Positions 2,603 to 42,779 of a stretch of DNA of 64,000 bases are shown in pieces. Origin of the DNA: a virus; the IMG/VR virus record IMGVR_UViG_3300043395_003277, positions 1 to 64,000 of that record, one strand, 5' to 3'. The position numbers and the translations under genes were made by a program. The stretch's first letter is position 1. Every line of letters begins with the position of its first letter. The notes under the pieces are model-generated. The model saw nothing but the letters and a program-made list of their open reading frames with translations. It did no database searches and was not told the DNA's origin.

Positions 2603-4228
2603 TCAGATAGAACCCCTTAAAGTCTGGACGTATTCGATAAGTTTTTGTTGTGCAACTTCTTTGGGATAGCTCTGCATGATTCTTGTCATATCACGAGAAA
2701 CATCGACAGAGCGGCGAGCTGCAAGTTGTTGCTGCATTGCTTTTGCTTGCGCAGGCGGTGCAGATTCACTAATACGAATTATATCCGCATCAGATAAACC
2801 GGAGAACGGATTACGTTTTTGTTGGCCGCGTGAGACGGCGGTAGGTTTACGATATGCCGCTTCAGAGTATTCGCCAGTAACTTTGCTTTGCGCTCCAGGT
2901 ACATACGCCGGCTCAATGCCGTAAACACCAATTCCAGGCGTTACTTCATTTGCCTCTGGACGAATACGATCCAGAGCGGAATACATGATTTCTTGTTTGG
3001 AAGGACCCGTCTCACCTTCTGGTAATGAATATGATTTACCCGCTGTTGCTTGCGATAACCACTCTGGAACATAACCACCTGTTGCCCTCTGACTACCAGG
3101 TACATCTGGGCCGAGTTCCGGGGGAATGTTTGCGGCGGTGGGCGATAACTGCCGTGGGCGATCTTCTGTCGTAAAGATTTGATAGCTGGGGGATGCACCA
3201 CGAATAGCACCTCCGGCAGCAGTTTTAGTAATCCGTGCTTCTGGCCCAATGTTTAAAGCAGTGCGTTCTGGAATGGGACCAAGAGCCTCTTCTTCGCTTA
3301 AAGCCATTAAACGATTAAAAGCATCCATCTGACCTTCGGTCATCTGAACGCGAAGCTCACCGCGTGTAGGGCCGTAACCTCGATTGATATTGTTTAAGCG
3401 TTGGCTAATAAAACTTGATGTAGCTTCCTCAACTTTTTCTTGGTCAGTCAAACGTTGTAACTGAAGATTCTCACGGTTAATGATTTGGTTTGTACCAGAT
3501 TCAACCGCGTTATTAAATTGGTTAAGATTGAGTGGTTTAGAAGCATTTTGAATAGAAGTTAAAGTATTTAGTCCAAGAGATAATTGTTCAGGTGCAATAG
3601 AAAGAGATCGAGAGGGTGCTTGATATTGCAGCTCGCCAGTAACAATATCTCCAGTTGTAACCCCTGGGTAACGCACACCCATCAAAGTTGGCTTAATATT
3701 TGGAATCTCCAGCTGATAAGGCATGCTGCGTTGTTGAGCAGCTTGAAGAAGATTTTGTGTTGCAGCTTGACGCCGTGCTTCGGCAACGTCACGACTAATA
3801 AATTCTTTTGGATCAGGTCTAAATGCTTGATATTCTTCATCAACCGCTACGGAAGGCGGCATTTTACTAGGAGCGGGTTGTGATGCTCCAGGGATAGTGG
3901 CAGCAGAAGCTTGGCGTACTGCTTCAACATTACCCAAATCAACTTGGCGTACTCCAGCGGTAGCAGAACGGCCCGTAGCTTTAGGGATCTGTCGCCCACG
4001 ACCAAGTAATCTGGCAGCACCAAACCCCAAACCAGCTAACGCACCCACAGCGGCTGCTGCAGTACCAAGAGCAGCCAGTGGGTTTGACTCTTGTTGGGAA
4101 GATTTTAATTGATTGCGGCGAAATTCAAGTACCTCTGGAGCTAACTGAGCCCTTTCTTCTGGATCTTCTGGTATTGAAACACCGGTGGCACGGCTATAAG
4201 CATAAAAGTCAGCTGGTGCTAAAGCCAT
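2603..4228 (-). CDS. putative virion-associated protein
   Basis: 541-aa ORF, N-terminal hydrophobic Ala/Gly helix followed by low-complexity region. Confidence 0.6.
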   Translation of the reverse strand: MALAPADFYAYSRATGVSIPEDPEERAQLAPEVLEFRRNQLKSSQQESNPLAALGTAAAAVGALAGLGFGAARLLGRGRQIPKATGRSATAGVRQVDLGNVEAVRQASAATIPGASQPAPSKMPPSVAVDEEYQAFRPDPKEFISRDVAEARRQAATQNLLQAAQQRSMPYQLEIPNIKPTLMGVRYPGVTTGDIVTGELQYQAPSRSLSIAPEQLSLGLNTLTSIQNASKPLNLNQFNNAVESGTNQIINRENLQLQRLTDQEKVEEATSSFISQRLNNINRGYGPTRGELRVQMTEGQMDAFNRLMALSEEEALGPIPERTALNIGPEARITKTAAGGAIRGASPSYQIFTTEDRPRQLSPTAANIPPELGPDVPGSQRATGGYVPEWLSQATAGKSYSLPEGETGPSKQEIMYSALDRIRPEANEVTPGIGVYGIEPAYVPGAQSKVTGEYSEAAYRKPTAVSRGQQKRNPFSGLSDADIIRISESAPPAQAKAMQQQLAARRSVDVSRDMTRIMQSYPKEVAQQKLIEYVQTLRGSI

Positions 4229-4339
4229 TTGATACCTTATTTGTAATTCTGCTTGCTATTTGCATTCTAAACGTAAAAAACCAGGAGAAAAATAAATACA
4301 GTAGACTGTTATCAGCAAAAGTGCTTTGATAACGGCAAA

Positions 4340-4552
4340 ATGGATCCTAAGAACCGGTTGGAAAGAGGCATTGCTCTAACCGCAATTGCAGACAAAGCCG
4401 AAGAAATGGAAAAAAAGGGTGTTGATAACCTTACAGTCACCAATTTTATTATTGGCGCACGCGATAAACTAAATCAAGAGCGTCCTGATTTGGAAAAAAG
4501 GGCAAAAGCTGCGACTGCAGCCGTGAAATGGGCTAGAACAAATATTGATTAA
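4340..4552 (+). CDS. hypothetical protein
   Basis: 70-aa ORF followed by an intrinsic terminator. Confidence 0.6.
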   Translation: MDPKNRLERGIALTAIADKAEEMEKKGVDNLTVTNFIIGARDKLNQERPDLEKRAKAATAAVKWARTNID

Positions 4553-4578
4553 GATCAAAAACTTAAAATTTGATAAAC

Positions 4579-4603
4579 GCCAGGGATAAAACCCTGGCTT
4601 TTT
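4579..4603 (+). terminator. intrinsic terminator
   Basis: GCCAGGG-ATAAAA-CCCTGGC followed by TTTTT. Confidence 0.8.
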
Positions 4604-4809
4604 GTTTAAAAATTAGGGCAAAACCCTAGATATACCGACACTTTTGTCAAAAAAACCGGCCTCATATAGCACCCAAAAAGGAAAATAAAATTTCTGGGCC
4701 TTCTCCAGACCCCTACGCGACACGTAATGTGTATAGAAAAAAAGAAAGGGGGTGATGGTCAAGGAAAGGATAGGGTGGGGTATAGTGGTGCGAATTTTGG
4801 ATAAATTAT

Positions 4810-4824
4810 TGAGAATGATTATCA
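4810..4824. promoter_or_regulatory. Fur/PerR-box-like 7-1-7 inverted repeat
   Basis: TGAGAAT-G-ATTATCA, 14/15 match to TGATAATnATTATCA, in the non-coding junction ahead of the early region. Confidence 0.35.
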
Positions 4825-4983
4825 ACAAGACGCGCAATTAACACGTAAATACATAACGATATCGTTATATGATCATATTATTATGTTGCGTATAGGACTC
4901 TGCTGCTCCGCCCTCTCCCCTTTGCCAGACAGGACAGTCACTCAACAGGAACTTAGATATCAATTGTGATTACATTGACTCAT

Positions 4984-5008
4984 CGTCGAGCTGGACGTTA
5001 AACGTAGC
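4984..5008 (+). ncRNA. mini-pseudoknot element, copy 1 (degenerate)
   Basis: CGTC-GA-GCTG-GACG-TTAAAC-G-TAGC. Confidence 0.5.
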
Positions 5009-5039
5009 AACTTCAACTCAACACCAACTCAACTGAATC

Positions 5040-5225
5040 ATGATTAAAGCTCAACTGTTTATCTTTGTTTTGTTCACTGCCATTACTGCTGGCGCAGCCA
5101 GTCAAGTCGGTATACATCTACTTGATAAAGCAACTGCTCGTCAGTGCCAGGCTAACGATTGGCCTGAAGAACTTGATCGCACTCACAAGGACTGGTGCGT
5201 AGACAACGGCTACAAGATTAACTGA
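5040..5225 (+). CDS. small membrane-anchored early protein
   Basis: 61 aa, N-terminal hydrophobic helix, two Cys; TCAAC-rich leader. Confidence 0.7.
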   Translation: MIKAQLFIFVLFTAITAGAASQVGIHLLDKATARQCQANDWPEELDRTHKDWCVDNGYKIN

Positions 5226-5274
5226 CTCCTGCTCTGGGGACTACGGTCCCCTCAACAGGACTCAACATCCTGTA
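5223..5274 (+). repeat. double-hairpin intergenic element A, copy 1
   Basis: TGACTCCTGCTCT-[GGGGAC TACG GTCCCC]-TCAA-CAGGA-CTCAACA-TCCTGTA. Confidence 0.85.
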
Positions 5275-5294
5275 TACATTATTACTACCACATC

Positions 5295-5492
5295 ATGGAC
5301 AAAGCATTCACTCAAGCTTGCATTGCAATGATCATGGGCACTGGCATTGGCATGCTGTTGTCTGTTGGCGGGCAGAAGATGCTTAACCAACATGCACTCA
5401 AGACATGTCCAAGTAAGTCAGGGCACCAACTTGTAATGCTCACCAGCTTTATTGGTGATGCATTCTATTGCGTTGATAAGCGTTACCTTTGA
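5295..5492 (+). CDS. small membrane-anchored early protein
   Basis: 65 aa, same architecture as 5040-5225 (TM helix, Cys pair). Confidence 0.7.
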   Translation: MDKAFTQACIAMIMGTGIGMLLSVGGQKMLNQHALKTCPSKSGHQLVMLTSFIGDAFYCVDKRYL

Positions 5493-5541
5493 CTCCTGCT
5501 CTGGGGCCACTTGGCCCCTCAACAGGACTCAACATCCTGTA
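5490..5541 (+). repeat. double-hairpin intergenic element A, copy 2
   Basis: TGACTCCTGCTCT-[GGGGCC ACTT GGCCCC]-TCAA-CAGGA-CTCAACA-TCCTGTA. Confidence 0.85.
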
Positions 5542-5561
5542 TTCACCAGCTCATCACAATC

Positions 5562-5801
5562 ATGTTCATTTATCAACCTTGCGAAGAAGCATGTGATCGC
5601 ATTGTCTGGTACGGTGGTGAATCAACTCAACTTCACTACGAAGTGTTCACCGAACGAAGCGAGTGGATCGAACTATCAGTTCGTACACTTGGCGGCGGTA
5701 TACCCATAGGTGTCGGTGCACTTCATGCAGAGATGGTTGATTACTACAACGACTGCAATGCAGGTATCACAATGCTTGCTGATGCATTTATGGAGGACTG
5801 A
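5562..5801 (+). CDS. hypothetical early protein
   Basis: ATG at 5562 after element A and a CA-rich leader (the track's TTG start lies inside the repeat). Confidence 0.7.
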   Translation: MFIYQPCEEACDRIVWYGGESTQLHYEVFTERSEWIELSVRTLGGGIPIGVGALHAEMVDYYNDCNAGITMLADAFMED

Positions 5802-5856
5802 CTTCTGCACTTTCCCATCCGCAAGGATGGGTTACTGCAGGACTCAACATCCTGTA
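5799..5856 (+). repeat. double-hairpin intergenic element A, copy 3
   Basis: TGACTTCTGCACT-TT-[CCCATCC GCAA GGATGGG]-TTACTG-CAGGA-CTCAACA-TCCTGTA. Confidence 0.85.
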
Positions 5857-5879
5857 CACATTCAACTCAACTCAGCACC

Positions 5880-6308
5880 ATGACATTCACACCTGCTACT
5901 GACACTGCTGAACTCAAGCAGTACGCAGACTCGCAACAAGTCCAGTTCTCTGGACGCATTGCGTTTATTAAGCAGTACACCAACGAAGCAGACAACTCTG
6001 TATTCGTTGCTATCAAACTAATTCATAATCTGAACTCCATGGTTCAGATCACTGTTACATTTACGAATAGCAACGGCCTTAACACTGCATACTCCAACGG
6101 CAATCTCGTTGTCGGTCAAGAGTTGCGTGTCTACGGACGTATCACTGGTATTCGTACGACATACCAAGATCAAGATGGACAGCTCCAGGTGCTCAAGCGA
6201 CCCGAGCTACAGCTGACTGTAAGGGATTACGAGTTCGGTCGTAAGCCTGCAGCAAAGACTGAAGCACCGGCCAAGGTTGAGCCAACCCTGGAAGAAATCC
6301 CATTCTGA
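5880..6308 (+). CDS. single-stranded DNA-binding protein-like (single OB fold)
   Basis: beta-rich pattern with G.EL.V.GRI motif and acidic C-terminal LEEIPF tail typical of SSBs. Confidence 0.6.
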   Translation: MTFTPATDTAELKQYADSQQVQFSGRIAFIKQYTNEADNSVFVAIKLIHNLNSMVQITVTFTNSNGLNTAYSNGNLVVGQELRVYGRITGIRTTYQDQDGQLQVLKRPELQLTVRDYEFGRKPAAKTEAPAKVEPTLEEIPF

Positions 6309-6310
6309 TC

Positions 6311-6387
6311 TGATTCCTGCACTTAACCCTTCCGTTGATGCAACCCTGTATCAGCGGTGGGTTTTCTGCAGGATTCAACATCCTGCA
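6311..6387 (+). repeat. double-hairpin intergenic element A, copy 4
   Basis: TGATTCCTGCACT-[longer hairpin CCGTTGATGCA ACCC TGTATCAGCGG]-TTTCTG-CAGGA-TTCAACA-TCCTGCA. Confidence 0.8.
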
Positions 6388-6412
6388 ATTCAATTACCCA
6401 ACATCTCAACAC

Positions 6413-6571
6413 ATGCGCAAATTCATTAACAAGATCTTCTATTCATTGGGATACGTCCCAATAGCAGAATACGAGAAGGTTTGTTACCACCGCCGTAATC
6501 TGCAACGTCTGGTACTTGATTACCAAGACGGCAAGATCAAGCCCGCTCCTAGTTTCGAAATCTACCGATGA
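6413..6571 (+). CDS. hypothetical early protein
   Basis: ATG at 6413 after TCTCAACAC leader. Confidence 0.6.
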   Translation: MRKFINKIFYSLGYVPIAEYEKVCYHRRNLQRLVLDYQDGKIKPAPSFEIYR

Positions 6572-6777
6572 AACATACCGTACGCCTCGGCAAAAACCAG
6601 TACATCAATCTGGATTCTTATGGTGAGTCTAATAAGACTCGACGGATCAACAACCTGATGGTCGCATTCCTTGCGGTACTCATCAGTGTTGTAACTGTAC
6701 CAGCCATGCTGGGCATCGACATCACATCACCTAACACCACAACTCAACATGAGCATCCACATCGCACTCGTCACTGA
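6568..6777 (+). CDS. small membrane protein
   Basis: ATGA overlap, single hydrophobic helix. Confidence 0.6.
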   Translation: MKHTVRLGKNQYINLDSYGESNKTRRINNLMVAFLAVLISVVTVPAMLGIDITSPNTTTQHEHPHRTRH

Positions 6778-6976
6778 CGCATCCGGTCGCTACGCCCACG
6801 TCTGGGGCGAAGCTCCAAGCTGGGGCAAGTTCCTTAATCAACTCGAAGACGTTGGCTGCGAGGTGATCGAGGAACAGACGGAAGACTGGGAAGACAGTAC
6901 TCAAGATGAGATTGCTGAAGACTGCCTGTCAGTCCATCAGCTGCTCAATGACACTGACTTCATACCCCACGACTAG
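6749..6976 (+). CDS. acidic hypothetical protein
   Basis: 75 aa, ACAACTCAAC leader. Confidence 0.7.
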   Translation: MSIHIALVTDASGRYAHVWGEAPSWGKFLNQLEDVGCEVIEEQTEDWEDSTQDEIAEDCLSVHQLLNDTDFIPHD

Positions 6977-7060
6977 TGTCCTGAATCTGAACAATAGCTA
7001 GTGGTGGTACTTGCCACTTGGCTTACCGCCGCTAGCCTGCATACGATTCCAATTCAACCC

Positions 7061-7486
7061 ATGGAAGCTCTCTCTCAACTCGACGTTCAATCACCTGATC
7101 ACGTCTCTGTGATTACCAGGGATGGCAAGGTCACAATCTCCGTCATCAAAGACGGAACATCAGTGACTCTTGGCTTCCCACTCAAGAACATAACCTTTGA
7201 TACAACTCCCCGTCCTCCCCTCCAACAGCCAGCGCCAAAGGTAATGGCTGTTAAGAGTGTTACCAAGACTTCAAGAGATAATGCTTCGACAGGTTATCGC
7301 TTTGCTCAGAAACTCACAGAAGATAAGGTGAAAGAACTCAAGCAAATCCTTGCAGATCCAGAGCTTATGTCCAAGTTCACAAGCAAGACCAAGGCTTATT
7401 ACGAACTTGGTCGCATCTATGGTGTCAGCCATTGTCGCATCTCACAGATTGCCAATGGTAACGGCTGGAACCACGTACAGCCTTGA
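7061..7486 (+). CDS. protein with C-terminal helix-turn-helix
   Basis: KLTEDKV...ELGRIYGVSHCRISQIANGNGWNHV matches the HTH tail seen on phage HNH proteins; ATG at 7061. Confidence 0.6.
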   Translation: MEALSQLDVQSPDHVSVITRDGKVTISVIKDGTSVTLGFPLKNITFDTTPRPPLQQPAPKVMAVKSVTKTSRDNASTGYRFAQKLTEDKVKELKQILADPELMSKFTSKTKAYYELGRIYGVSHCRISQIANGNGWNHVQP

Positions 7487-7515
7487 CACCGCAGTAGTAC
7501 ATAATTACTACGACT

Positions 7516-7605
7516 GGACCTGGACACACGCGGTGTGGATTCAATGAGATCAAAGAGTTATCTTTGTATTTCTTTGGATCCGCCTGCGGCGTCCTTAAAC
7601 TGTCC
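7516..7605 (+). ncRNA. mini-pseudoknot element, copy 2, carrying a 64-nt hairpin insert
   Basis: GGAC-CT-GGACA-[insert 7527-7590 folding as one long hairpin]-GTCC-TTAAAC-TGTCC. Confidence 0.7.
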
Positions 7606-7628
7606 ATTTACTTTATTCAATTCAACTC

Positions 7629-7820
7629 ATGAACGACCTTAATTTTATTGATGAACAACGCAGTGCTGACTTGCTGGATGCAATGGCCGACATTGCAGAC
7701 GAACAAGAGCAAGCCATGCGTGAATCACTTCAATCTGAATGGTCCCTCATCGAAGATGAAGATGGAACATTCATTGGATTTACTGTAACCAACACACATG
7801 AAGACGATGACCAAACTTAA
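7629..7820 (+). CDS. acidic hypothetical protein
   Basis: 63 aa, TTCAATTCAACTC leader. Confidence 0.65.
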   Translation: MNDLNFIDEQRSADLLDAMADIADEQEQAMRESLQSEWSLIEDEDGTFIGFTVTNTHEDDDQT

Positions 7821-8238
7821 TTACACACTGAAACAAGCATGGGATGACGGTGACATCATCGTCATCCTGATCACTATCATTTCAATCATCATTACGGAGT
7901 TTGCATCATGTCTTACATCTCAGAACTCAAGAAGTTCTACCCCAAAACCTACAAAGCTCGTTACGCAATCAACGCCTACGACACCCACAAGTACTTCGAA
8001 CACGAAGATCCAACGGTCATCACCATCCACGAAACCACGCTCAACTACGGTGGGCCTGAAGAAGGTGGATGGTGGTACCAAGCAGGATACCCAGTCCGAA
8101 GCCACTGTATCTTCTCCAAGAAGCAGGCGATCCAAACCTTCATCCAGTACTTCGAAGAGTACGAAATCGAAGGCCAGCCATCTCTTGGAGATTCAACAAC
8201 TTACTTCAACATCGAACTTGGTTTCTCAAACGGACTAG
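7807..8238 (+). CDS. possible membrane-anchored Ser/Thr/Lys-rich protein overprinted on next gene
   Basis: non-overlapped 5' part encodes an Ile-rich TM helix; frame stays open across 7908-8238. Confidence 0.35.
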   Translation: MTKLNYTLKQAWDDGDIIVILITIISIIITEFASCLTSQNSRSSTPKPTKLVTQSTPTTPTSTSNTKIQRSSPSTKPRSTTVGLKKVDGGTKQDTQSEATVSSPRSRRSKPSSSTSKSTKSKASHLLEIQQLTSTSNLVSQTD

Positions 8239-8276
8239 CTAAACGCTATCCTGCGGAGCGTCCACACTACTGCTGA
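7908..8276 (+). CDS. phage protein with YGGPEEGGWWY motif
   Basis: motif recurrent in phage early proteins of unknown function. Confidence 0.75.
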   Translation: MSYISELKKFYPKTYKARYAINAYDTHKYFEHEDPTVITIHETTLNYGGPEEGGWWYQAGYPVRSHCIFSKKQAIQTFIQYFEEYEIEGQPSLGDSTTYFNIELGFSNGLAKRYPAERPHYC

Positions 8277-8294
8277 ATTCAAACTCAACGCAAC

Positions 8295-8609
8295 ATGCCT
8301 TACACCAAGGAACAATTGCAGCATCCACCAAGTTTACGTCTTACCGTAAACCAACGGAACATTTACATGTATTACTTGAACTTCCGTGCGAAACACGGAG
8401 ATCAAACATGTTATGTACCACCAATGCCAATGCAATCCAGTCGCCTGAAGGAATATTTCCGTGCGTTGGAAGCATTGGAGGAGAAGAAGTTGTTATCTGT
8501 GGATCGAAGCAATGTTCCTTACACCAAGTGGATCCTGAAAGATCCAGGGCAAGTATTGGATAGCACACAGAATGTGCCAATACATGCCAATACTTCAACA
8601 ACAACTTGA
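8295..8609 (+). CDS. putative winged-helix DNA-binding protein
   Basis: LTVNQRNIY.Y...ALEALEEKKLL pattern resembles LexA/MarR-type wHTH. Confidence 0.4.
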   Translation: MPYTKEQLQHPPSLRLTVNQRNIYMYYLNFRAKHGDQTCYVPPMPMQSSRLKEYFRALEALEEKKLLSVDRSNVPYTKWILKDPGQVLDSTQNVPIHANTSTTT

Positions 8610-8698
8610 CGATAGCGTTATATCGTTATATCCCTTGAGGTATTGTCGGATAACTACTGACCTGCCAAAACAACACACACTCAACTCAACACAAATCC

Positions 8699-8965
8699 AT
8701 GGCAACAAACTACGTCAACGAGTACACAGTACTCAACAACATCCTTGCTGAACTCAAGGAGGTTACCAAGCGTGAGAACAAGCGTCATCAAATGGATCAA
8801 CATCTAACCTTCAGCATGCTTGCATTGCTGGAAGATGAGATCATTCCTCTACTTGAGAATGAACTTGATGTTGATTACGAACCAGATGAAACAGGTGAAC
8901 CACCCATGACTGCTGATGAAATGCACAGCGCAGCTTGGAAACAACACCAAGAATTACATCGATGA
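8699..8965 (+). CDS. hypothetical protein
   Basis: 88 aa, TCAACTCAAC leader, GEPP motif. Confidence 0.7.
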   Translation: MATNYVNEYTVLNNILAELKEVTKRENKRHQMDQHLTFSMLALLEDEIIPLLENELDVDYEPDETGEPPMTADEMHSAAWKQHQELHR

Positions 8966-9220
8966 GTCGATGCAAATTTATTAATACAGCACTACGTGCA
9001 TGGCGTCAGCACCAAGAGCTTCACTCATAACGTGAGTGGTACTACTCCAGATCTGAGTAGAAGAATCACCCCCTGCACCCCCGCAAAAGTACCAGGGGGA
9101 CATCTATATTTCTATTAATAATCCTTATGTATTACTTTTATTAATACATCATTCAACCCTTTACACACCTGGTAGACTTCACCTACTTAACAAAGTACCA
9201 ACCTTCAATTCACTTCAATC

Positions 9221-14526: not shown

Positions 14527-14602
14527 GCCCGAGTAGCCCAGCGGAAGAGGCAAGCGACTTAAAATCGCTCCAGCGTGAGTTCGAATCTCACCTCGGGTAC
14601 CA
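14527..14602 (+). tRNA. trnL: tRNA-Leu(TAA) with short variable loop and encoded CCA
   Basis: acceptor GCCCGAG/CTCGGGT, anticodon arm AGCGA-CTTAAAA-TCGCT, T arm GTGAG-TTCGAAT-CTCAC, ACCA end. Confidence 0.92.
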
Positions 14603-41498: not shown

Positions 41499-42779
41499 AT
41501 GACTAAAAAACCTAAGCTCCTTTGGTGTGGTGACATTGTTGCCATGACGGGTTTTGCGCGGGTAACCGAAAACGTACTGAGCCGCATCAAGGATGATTTC
41601 GATATTGTTGTCCTTGGTCATAACTGGTGGGGTGATCCAAGCCCGCTGCAGGCTGAGTATTTAATGTACCCTTCGTCCAATCGATTCCAGCAGGCGCCGT
41701 TTGGTGAAGAACGCATTCGAGAAATTATTGAAAAAGAAAAGCCGGACGTTGTTTTTACCATTAATGATATGTGGATCATTAATGAGCAATACCGTCGTAT
41801 TGAAGACCTTCACAAAGAAGGTCGGTTTAAATTTGTGGGTTATGCGCCCATGGATTCTTATGCATGGACCGGCTGCCTTGCCGAAACAGCCAACAATTGG
41901 GATGCGGTCATCTCTTATACGGAATTTGGCGCTCACGAATTTATTCGTGGTGGTATCAATAAACCAATCGCTGTCGTGCCCCATGGTGTGACTTCTGGTC
42001 AGTTCCAACCCATGGATAAGCTGGAGGCTCGTAAGCGTCTTGGGTTGGATCCAGATACTTTTATTGTGTTTAACGGTAATCGCAATCAATTCCGTAAACG
42101 GATTGATATCACCATTGATGCTTTTGCCAAGTTTGCTGTCGATAAACCTGACACTCGCCTTTACCTACACATGGGTATGAAGGACCAGGGCTGGGACATT
42201 ATGGCGGTGTTTGCTCGTGCCATGCATCGTGTGGGACTTGATCCCAACAATCGCATCATCCTTTCAACGAATACAGCGCAGCCGCCAAACGTATCTGTTG
42301 AAATGCTGAATGGCATTTATAACGCTGTTGATGTTGGCGTCAACACCTGCAAAGGAGAAGGCTGGGGTCTGGTTAACTTTGAACACGCTGCCTGTCGTGT
42401 AGCCCAGGTGGTGCCTGACCATACTTCCTGTAAGGAAATCTTTGATGGGTATGGTGAATTGATTCGTTGTGACCACGTTGATGTGGATACCAACTACTCC
42501 AGGGAGATGCCCTGTCCATCTATCGACCACCTGGCGGAGATCCTTACAGACCTCTACAACGATCGGGAACGCCTCGACCAGGTCGCTCAGAAGTGCTACG
42601 ACCGTGTGACCAGCCCGCAATACGACTGGAGTACGGTTGCTTCCCAGTTCGCTGGAATCTTTGAAGAAGTCCTGAAGGAACCTTCTCTGGTTGATACGCA
42701 AGTTGAGACTCAGGAGAAAAAGAAGAACAAGAAGAAAAAAGAACGTAAGGAGCGTCGGCTGGTAGGTGCCGTAAGCTAA
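41499..42779 (+). CDS. glycosyltransferase (GT-B, family 4-like)
   Basis: TGFARV, HGV, NRNQFRKRID, YNAVDV..NT..GEGWGL..FE.AAC. Confidence 0.9.
   Translation: MTKKPKLLWCGDIVAMTGFARVTENVLSRIKDDFDIVVLGHNWWGDPSPLQAEYLMYPSSNRFQQAPFGEERIREIIEKEKPDVVFTINDMWIINEQYRRIEDLHKEGRFKFVGYAPMDSYAWTGCLAETANNWDAVISYTEFGAHEFIRGGINKPIAVVPHGVTSGQFQPMDKLEARKRLGLDPDTFIVFNGNRNQFRKRIDITIDAFAKFAVDKPDTRLYLHMGMKDQGWDIMAVFARAMHRVGLDPNNRIILSTNTAQPPNVSVEMLNGIYNAVDVGVNTCKGEGWGLVNFEHAACRVAQVVPDHTSCKEIFDGYGELIRCDHVDVDTNYSREMPCPSIDHLAEILTDLYNDRERLDQVAQKCYDRVTSPQYDWSTVASQFAGIFEEVLKEPSLVDTQVETQEKKKNKKKKERKERRLVGAVS

Follow-up and report, generated by a model that had tools for sequence, protein, structure and literature searches.

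The early genes of phage T7 are punctuated by RNase III sites (R0.3, R0.5, R1, R1.1 and R1.3), and in the leader attenuators of trp and erm the position of the ribosome on a short upstream frame picks between two mutually exclusive helices, a fourth strand then forming a terminator or hiding the ribosome-binding site. A substrate of RNase III needs about two turns of helix; internal loops confine the enzyme to one strand and leave 3' hairpins that are protective against exonucleases, and in R1.1 of T7 a U·C pair adjoins the scissile bond (PMC1540722, excerpt). The intergenic elements named PeSLs, found in T4-type phages, combine a strong sigma-70-like promoter with a terminator stem-loop (PMC2839356, excerpt). 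Here we describe a real, widespread and uncatalogued cyanophage RNA element, present in four copies between the first early genes in a 64,000-nucleotide stretch of viral DNA (hereafter the window). The window comprises bases 1-64000 of the IMG/VR virus record IMGVR_UViG_3300043395_003277, which is 85,449 bp long with direct terminal repeats of 127 bp. The family-A DNA polymerase encoded there shares 70.5% identity, across 100% of its length, with that of Synechococcus phage S-EIVl (KJ410740.1; source, high-arctic lake; host, Synechococcus sp. PCCC-A2c), which identifies the window phage as a freshwater cyanophage of the S-EIV1 lineage. We know of no account of early-message handling in S-EIV1-type cyanophages.

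Each element is laid out as a 5' strand X1 (UGA-Y-UYCUGCA, counted from the upstream stop codon), a variable hairpin P2, a central strand X' (UGCAGGA-Y-UCA), a loop and a 3' strand X3 (UCCUGYA), such that X' may pair either with X1, giving helix P1, or with X3, giving helix P3. As among the T7 signals, consecutive early genes are separated by several related copies, all on the coding strand; each copy is predicted to form an irregular hairpin of about two helical turns with mismatches and internal loops, a pyrimidine-pyrimidine pair is kept, and a cut in a single strand would leave a protective 3' hairpin (for T7, excerpt of PMC1540722). Unlike those signals, to which they show no sequence relation, the present elements belong to a phage of a cyanobacterial host, are anchored to the stop codon and carry a third covarying strand, X3; their cleavage is proposed by analogy. 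PeSLs are likewise conserved intergenic stem-loop motifs that flank small orphan early genes and hold the junctions of insertions, deletions and replacements (PMC2839356 and PMC4122927, excerpts). The window phage, of the S-EIV1 lineage, is not of the T4 type, and its elements are conserved as RNA with alternative helices; with no promoter-like site inside, they are not PeSLs. Compared with the trp and erm attenuators, the element has three strands only, an open downstream leader and a full upstream gene as its "leader peptide", and it is not an attenuator of this kind because it has no fourth strand and no hidden start site.

Four copies in the window and their predicted fold

An earlier inspection of the letters alone (the sequence-only reading) had placed four copies at 5223, 5490, 5799 and 6311, all of which were confirmed by exact-word and covariance-model searches. 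On the + strand, exact matches to the 17-mer CAGGAYTCAACATCCTG lie at 5256, 5523, 5838 and 6369, against a mean of 0.35 matches in shuffles, none of 100 of which reached 5; with up to two mismatches allowed, the whole 85,449-bp genome contains four forward and no reverse matches. A covariance model made from relatives, with the 3' arm excluded, recovered these four places and no others from the whole genome (48.5-62.8 bits, E 1e-11 to 1e-15), and the minus-strand reading of the same places scored 8.5-17.8 bits, that is, 30-45 bits lower. The copies and their predicted helices are as follows.

5223..5274, + strand: copy 1, 52.6 bits; TGA 5223-5225 is the stop of the open reading frame (ORF) 5040-5225
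Copy 1 P1: 5223-5225:5262-5264 and 5227-5231:5256-5260, with a C·C mismatch at 5226/5261
Copy 1 P2: 5236-5241:5246-5251, GGGGAC-UACG-GUCCCC, loop UACG
Copy 1 alternative P3: 5255-5260:5268-5273
5490..5541, + strand: copy 2, 48.5 bits; TGA 5490-5492 is the stop of ORF 5295-5492
Copy 2 P1: 5490-5492:5529-5531 and 5494-5498:5523-5527
Copy 2 P2: 5503-5508:5513-5518, GGGGCC-ACUU-GGCCCC, loop ACUU
Copy 2 P3: 5522-5527:5535-5540
5799..5856, + strand: copy 3, 55.1 bits; TGA 5799-5801 is the stop of ORF 5562-5801
Copy 3 P1: 5799-5801:5844-5846 and 5803-5809:5836-5842, with one U-G pair
Copy 3 P2: 5814-5820:5825-5831, CCCAUCC-GCAA-GGAUGGG, loop GCAA
Copy 3 P3: 5836-5842:5850-5856
6311..6387, + strand: copy 4, 62.8 bits; the upstream ORF 5880-6308 stops at TGA 6306-6308
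Copy 4 P1: 6311-6313:6375-6377 and 6315-6321:6367-6373, with a U·U mismatch at 6314/6374
Copy 4 P2, a two-tier hairpin of 39 nt: 6325-6329:6359-6363 and 6332-6342:6347-6357
Copy 4 P3: 6367-6374:6380-6387

Three copies indeed begin with the TGA of the upstream gene, as had been noted (ORFs ending at 5225, 5492 and 5801), and in copy 4 the TGA of the upstream gene starts 5 nt ahead of the element's own TGA at 6311. The folds of all four copies also bear out a middle hairpin that is variable yet paired, with cUACGg and GCAA loops. A decayed fifth copy, suspected at 4896-4950, had to be given up: this segment has no fold (z +1.79; 195 of 200 shuffles fold as well) and no covariance-model match at E<=10, and only the 10-nt word CTCAACAGGA is common to it and copies 1 and 2.

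Both the minimum-free-energy and the centroid fold of all four copies are one long hairpin, with z values of -4.2 to -7.2. It begins with the UGA:UCA pairs, followed by a pyrimidine-pyrimidine mismatch, five to seven pairs of YUYCUG(CA) with (UG)CAGGA, a small internal loop and the variable hairpin atop. The computed energies of the long fold and of the P2+P3 alternative are -22.8 vs -17.4 kcal/mol for copy 1, -23.6 vs -18.2 kcal/mol for copy 2, -25.4 vs -17.1 kcal/mol for copy 3 and -39.3 vs -28.7 kcal/mol for copy 4, the alternative being less stable by 5.4, 5.4, 8.3 and 10.6 kcal/mol, respectively; in the ensemble, X' pairs with the downstream X3 at less than 1% probability. When X1 is removed, P3 forms in the isolated 3' fragment at -6.7 to -11.2 kcal/mol, 0-1 nt from the 5' end. 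The ground state in these models, with P1 stacked on P2, is a single long irregular hairpin that spans some two helical turns, and P3 is predicted to form only with X1 occupied or removed. As the long fold dominates by 5.4-10.6 kcal/mol and the alternative stays below 1%, the element is not a freely balanced switch. The double-hairpin architecture proposed from the letters thus held in one respect, in that the second helix is also kept by selection, and not in the other, the side-by-side hairpins being a minor state at equilibrium.

Searches of catalogues returned little. Rfam 15 gave no gathering-score match in the window except one tRNA gene (14527-14599, 56.5 bits), and nothing at E<=1 in 4800-6600. 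BLAST of the element region against 50,697 phage records in near mode gave no match, nor did copy 3 in distant mode against the same records; S-EIVl was reached only via its DNA polymerase and the covariance model. No description of the element was found in the literature searched, which did not include the S-EIV1 genome paper. The 20-mer CTGCAGGAYTCAACATCCTG, used to look for possible host copies in genome contigs, gave three matches, none with the structure, in a scan that sees exact matches only.

Covariation of three strands in relatives

Scanning IMG/VR for exact matches gave 85 stretches. Most single matches outside 30-86-kb contigs were chance, and the true matches show the same architecture right after a stop codon, 20-35 nt ahead of the next ATG. 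The alignment set consisted of 85 distinct candidates minus three chance matches (L019, L030 and L039), leaving 82 elements. Over these, 93.7% of the cells of the long hairpin pair, compared to 81.3% after shuffling and 31-48% with slid partners, and double-sided changes were observed at 8 of its 16 pairs; RNAalifold on its own predicts the P1 core and the base of P2. Variation in X1 is C-to-U opposite G, with 27 and 11 G-U cells at two positions and no A·C cell at either, and one pair of P2 is G-U in 44 of the 82 elements. P1 and P3 are very strongly conserved in sequence, ten alignment columns are invariant in 80 sequences, and two Y·Y mismatches flank the 7-pair core (s4 in 80 of 82, s12 in 82 of 82). 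Among 103 distinct hairpins, 46 have UNCG or GNRA apical loops, and the arm has a median length of 22 nt, with 99% of at least 18 nt and 88% of at least 20 nt. Pairing with double changes, G-U-only variation, the UNCG and GNRA loops and the strand-asymmetric model scores together indicate that the element is plus-strand RNA, in the sense of the genes. An integron attC-like folded-DNA site was also considered, and was rejected on the G-U-only variation and the strand scores (minus strand 30-45 bits lower), although an integrase was not searched for.

The covariance model, having been built from elements cut ahead of the 3' arm, is unbiased toward X3. With this model, 86 sources were searched, giving 175 matches at E<=0.001, of which the last 10 rows were excluded (three antisense echoes, six partial matches at 26.7 bits and one clipped at the locus end). 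Diverged copies with concerted change in all three strands were found, as exemplified by UGACGUUUGCA ... UGCAGACCUCA ... GUCUGCA, by UGAUCUCUGCA ... UGCAGGGCUUA-GCUCUGCA, by UGACGACUACA ... UGUAGUCCUCAACGAGGGCUAC and by UGACGGUUGCA ... GCAGCCCUCAUGGCUGC. The X' strand falls into the classes UGCAGGA (62), UGCAGAC (13), UACAGGA (9), UGCAGGG (7), UGUAGUC (3) and UGCAGCC (1), each with matching X1 and X3. With their own partners, 122 distinct elements pair at 6.06 of 7 positions in P1 and 6.47 of 7 in P3, compared to 5.04 and 4.24 of 7 with partners swapped from another X' class; four small X' classes were out of register in this tabulation, which makes their P1 counts too low. This covariation shows that P3 is under selection as well as P1, and it upholds the earlier remark that the central CAGGA has two mutually exclusive pairings, both of which are kept by compensating changes in relatives. 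X1 often forms G-U pairs with X' where X3 has G-C (UUCUGCA or UCUUGCA vs UCCUG; GUUUGCA vs GUCUGCA), and this slight difference between X1 and X3 may reflect tuning of the fold balance or avoidance of a perfect direct DNA repeat.

The cultured phage S-EIVl has a single copy (KJ410740.1, 42668-42719, minus strand), which sits on the TGA of AHV82199.1 and in which X' is CAGAGC and the 3' arm GCUCUG, with a C at the corresponding X1 position. Downstream of this copy, an ATG and an open frame are present in 42387-42714 of KJ410740.1, a stretch of 328 nt with no annotated gene.

Conservation of this kind could also be read as an operator for a phage or host RNA-binding protein, which would recognise P1 with its two Y·Y mismatches, or P3, and co-regulate the early genes. 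The strong conservation of P1 and P3 with ten invariant columns would suit such a protein, as would the retention of the mismatches while the adjoining pairs covary. However, the P3 loop is not conserved between the X' classes (CUCAACA, CUCAA, UUA, AAC and UUCU), and no RNA-binding domain was found among the scanned proteins, only 23 ORFs having been compared with Pfam or PHROGs. We therefore regard an operator as very unlikely.

Stop-codon anchoring and candidate functions

For the analysis of position, 169 matches (165 of the 175 rows and the four of the window) were reduced to 125 distinct contexts. In 96 of these the upstream ORF terminates on the UGA of the element itself, and in 26 its stop lies 2-10 nt upstream, hence within 10 nt in 122; the other three have no ORF of 25 codons, two being at locus edges and one having an extra hairpin inserted. 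Tandem partial duplications of X1 (TGACT...TGACT) precede some elements (L028:1240-1270, L063:1425-1450, L028:440-460 and L080:5755-5775), displace the true stop by 7-10 nt in the upstream direction and resemble scars of recombination. The next start codon is found 8-53 nt past the UCA, with a median of 34. The cyanobacterial hosts use few Shine-Dalgarno sites; in the present leaders G makes up 6.3%, vs 22.3% in the genome, and GGA occurs within -20..-4 in only 24 of 123. The start regions are unpaired in both folds, neither of which hides the start of the next gene.

In the window, the UGA of each of the four elements shares its frame with the next ATG, at distances of 72, 72, 81 and 102 nt; the spans 5223-5297, 5490-5564 and 5799-5882 contain no stop by eye, and 6311-6415 is the fourth in-frame span. 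Across the family, the frame of the UGA relative to the next ORF is distributed as 45, 37 and 43 of 125, with an uninterrupted frame in only 19 of the 45 in-frame cases. Given this lack of frame bias, the pattern in the window is taken as chance, and stop-codon read-through or recoding, or fusion of neighbouring small proteins, was ruled out.

We tentatively favour a role of the elements in punctuating the polycistronic early mRNA, as RNase III sites do between the T7 early genes, by a cut followed by refolding or by a block to exonucleases; on analogy with T7 this is plausible, though far from assured. A host RNase III-type double-strand endonuclease would cut the long hairpin near the conserved Y·Y mismatch at the top of P1 or, as an alternative to cutting, the long hairpin would halt 3' exonucleases. 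After a cut, the upstream message would end in the P2 hairpin, and the freed X' would refold with X3, so that the downstream message would start with a flush 5' hairpin that may keep RNase E and RNase J off its new 5'-monophosphate end. Such capping would matter in hosts that rely on RNase E and RNase J: these enzymes, which cyanobacteria possess, prefer the 5'-monophosphate ends left by endonucleolytic cleavage (PMC10939160, excerpt). Terminating ribosomes would melt P1 in each round, with P3 briefly parking X', and as a by-product the conserved strands would offer short homology for recombination by which single genes are moved. RNase III may be available in the infected cell: Synechococcus elongatus, of the host genus, is among the control genomes that match both Ribonucleas_3_3 and dsrm. 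Neither domain was found in the phage genome.

Several points weigh against punctuation by cleavage. The one metatranscriptome run found contains 5% of the sampled words and is uninformative on RNA ends, and none of its three short contigs (6073-6223, 6613-6645 and 6837-6982) lies over an element. The rules of RNase III are those of the E. coli enzyme and may not be those of the cyanobacterial one. As P2 varies from 6 to more than 16 pairs, cuts measured from the apical loop would land at different positions in different elements. A U-rich run after some of the P2 hairpins makes these possible terminators, one of the four window copies being flagged as such. Tight anchoring to the stop codon (96 of 125) is not known from the T7 sites. 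It is better explained by involvement of the ribosome, and the three-strand covariation fits a ribosome-driven switch equally well.

A ribosome-actuated switch, which would operate with no cleavage, is accordingly the main rival. With UGA in its A site, a ribosome is expected to cover roughly X1 (UGA plus 8 nt) and to leave P2 folded. With the stop codon built into X1, a terminating ribosome must melt the 5' strand, upon which X' would pair with X3, and P1 would re-form when upstream translation ceases; the element would thereby signal whether the upstream gene is being translated and would set some feature of the downstream message, for example its decay, ribosome loading or re-initiation. 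The constancy of the stop (at the UGA of the element in 96 of 125 contexts and no more than 10 nt from it in 122), while the start codon floats 8-53 nt downstream, argues for this switch, as do the covariation of both helices and the match between X1 and the expected ribosome coverage, and the conserved UCA in the P3 loop could seed the return of X1. No output is visible, however, since neither state hides the next start and the leaders are G-poor and unpaired (6.3% G; GGA in 24 of 123). In eight contexts, moreover, the stop lies 7-10 nt upstream, so that little of P1 would be opened, and with P1 favoured by 5.4-10.6 kcal/mol P3 would last only while the ribosome is present. The switch is a possible but, on this balance, unlikely explanation, and it is compatible with punctuation, as both can coexist. 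The translation-coupled switch of the sequence-only reading is thus retained in part: the three-strand covariation and the stop codon inside X1 speak for it, and the single dominant fold and the lack of a visible output speak against it.

In a more general form, the element may be a sensor of translation termination, in which each terminating ribosome flips the toggle from X1:X' to X':X3 on the stop codon, a proposal that we consider doubtful. Such a sensor would tie the fate of the downstream message (cutting, decay or loading) to translation of the preceding gene, as a modular, portable part that travels with its cassette.

A transcription terminator or attenuator, in which P2 and the U-rich run would end or dampen transcription and P1 and P3 would modulate this, is the least probable of the explanations weighed here. 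GC-rich P2 hairpins with UUUUCUG, UUUCUUG or UUUACUG after them are common, and 6332-6357 plus TGGGTTTTCT in copy 4 was flagged by the terminator scan. In copies 1 and 2, however, P2 is followed by UCAAC with no U run, and copy 4 is the only one of the four flagged. X' and X3 lie downstream of the termination decision and could hardly control it, and the elements contain no promoter with which transcription would restart.

Promoters of other kinds were tried and rejected. For sigma-70 promoters, three promoter-like sites were found in 4200-9000, vs 7.0 expected, none of them inside an element. N4-type hairpin promoters and T7-type phage promoters were dismissed as the sequence after X3 is not conserved and no RNA_pol match was obtained. 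The latter absence is weak, because in the search for a T7-type RNA polymerase, which gave no RNA_pol match and no ORF of more than 1058 aa in the phage, the control matched nothing anywhere.

The element can be viewed as a conserved, portable RNA module starting from the stop codon, with two helices that are both kept by three-strand covariation. It would be a compact model for phage cutting or stabilising of polycistronic mRNA in cyanobacteria and for the remodelling of RNA by ribosomes at a gene end, and it is a candidate insulator or processing part for synthetic operons in cyanobacteria. The copy in the cultured phage S-EIVl makes the question open to experiment.

Gene cassettes and neighbouring features

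The genes that the four elements separate, and the first gene beyond them, are listed below, together with the families to which they belong among the ORFs that flank elements in relatives.

5040..5225, + strand: early gene 1, 61 aa; no Pfam or PHROG match; family F6
5295..5492, + strand: early gene 2, 65 aa; no Pfam or PHROG family match; family F4
5562..5801, + strand: early gene 3, 79 aa from the ATG at 5562 (5511 is another ORF start); no family match; family F1
5880..6308, + strand: early gene 4, 142 aa; sub-threshold matches only; family F2
6413..6571, + strand: early gene 5, 52 aa; no family match; family F11

The flanking ORFs form 23 families in 41 different adjacency pairs. Two or more downstream partners were found for 7 of 18 upstream families, and two or more upstream partners for 8 of 15 downstream families. 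The orders F2-E-F5 and F2-E-F9-E-F5, E being an element, were both found in relatives and differ by one gene and one element, and the order F4-E-F1 of the window differs in the same way from F4-E-F0-E-F1. Where L005 carries two elements that enclose a gene, L066 carries a single one, and the nucleotide alignments overlap inside X'-loop-X3, which is what recombination between conserved 3' parts predicts. This pair was used to map a crossover because the genes of the window and of L015 are too diverged: between these two the elements align at 85-100%, the genes between them give no nucleotide alignment, and the only other alignment is 47 nt at the 3' end of gene 1 (81%). These comparisons show that gene cassettes are exchanged at the elements. 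The gain and loss of single genes between elements, anticipated by the sequence-only reading and checked here on relatives, was found with junctions inside the elements; the PeSL-like shuffling of modules that it had also proposed is supported to this extent, although the elements, with no promoter inside, are not PeSLs.

It follows to ask whether the primary role lies at the DNA level, the conserved strands being linkers for homologous recombination that shuffles single-gene cassettes and the RNA folds being secondary. Besides the multiple partners on both sides, the cassettes present or absent between elements, the L005 and L066 crossover, the X1 duplications at some junctions and the 85-100% identity to L015 amid genes that fail to align (bar the 47 nt), the type of P2 is tied to neither neighbour (15% of pairs are of the same type for the upstream as for the downstream gene, against a background of 12%). 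Recombination, however, needs identity rather than pairing, and a linker leaves the three-strand compensation, the G-U-only variation, the tetraloops and the strand asymmetry unexplained; shuffling may merely follow from having conserved RNA signals at every gene boundary. A primary role in DNA is therefore distinctly unlikely. As RNA signals that double as joints for orphan-gene swapping, the elements would be a compact model of this as well.

A second stop-anchored intergenic element, tRNA-like in form (TGATCCGT..AAGCGGG..CAGGTGCAAACCCTG..ATTGCC-hairpin; for example L083:3370-3459 and L017 near 5088), was found in relatives at equivalent early-gene junctions, with the upstream TGA built in in 40 of 41 cases; none was found in the genome of the window phage. 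It matches RF02435 weakly (25.7 bits, gathering score 52), with an acceptor-like stem and a T-arm-like hairpin aligned. Its fold is unlike that of the three-strand element and its position at stop-anchored early junctions is alike; for 7 of 24 downstream gene families, either kind can be found ahead of the gene. By analogy, this fits a common role of the two in punctuation.

The genes downstream of early gene 5 abut or overlap and are without elements. On the other side of the block, ahead of the leader of the early region, a clean terminator-like hairpin at 4579-4598 (GCCAGGG-ATAAAA-CCCTGGC, then TTTTTG) closes a small + strand ORF at 4340-4552.

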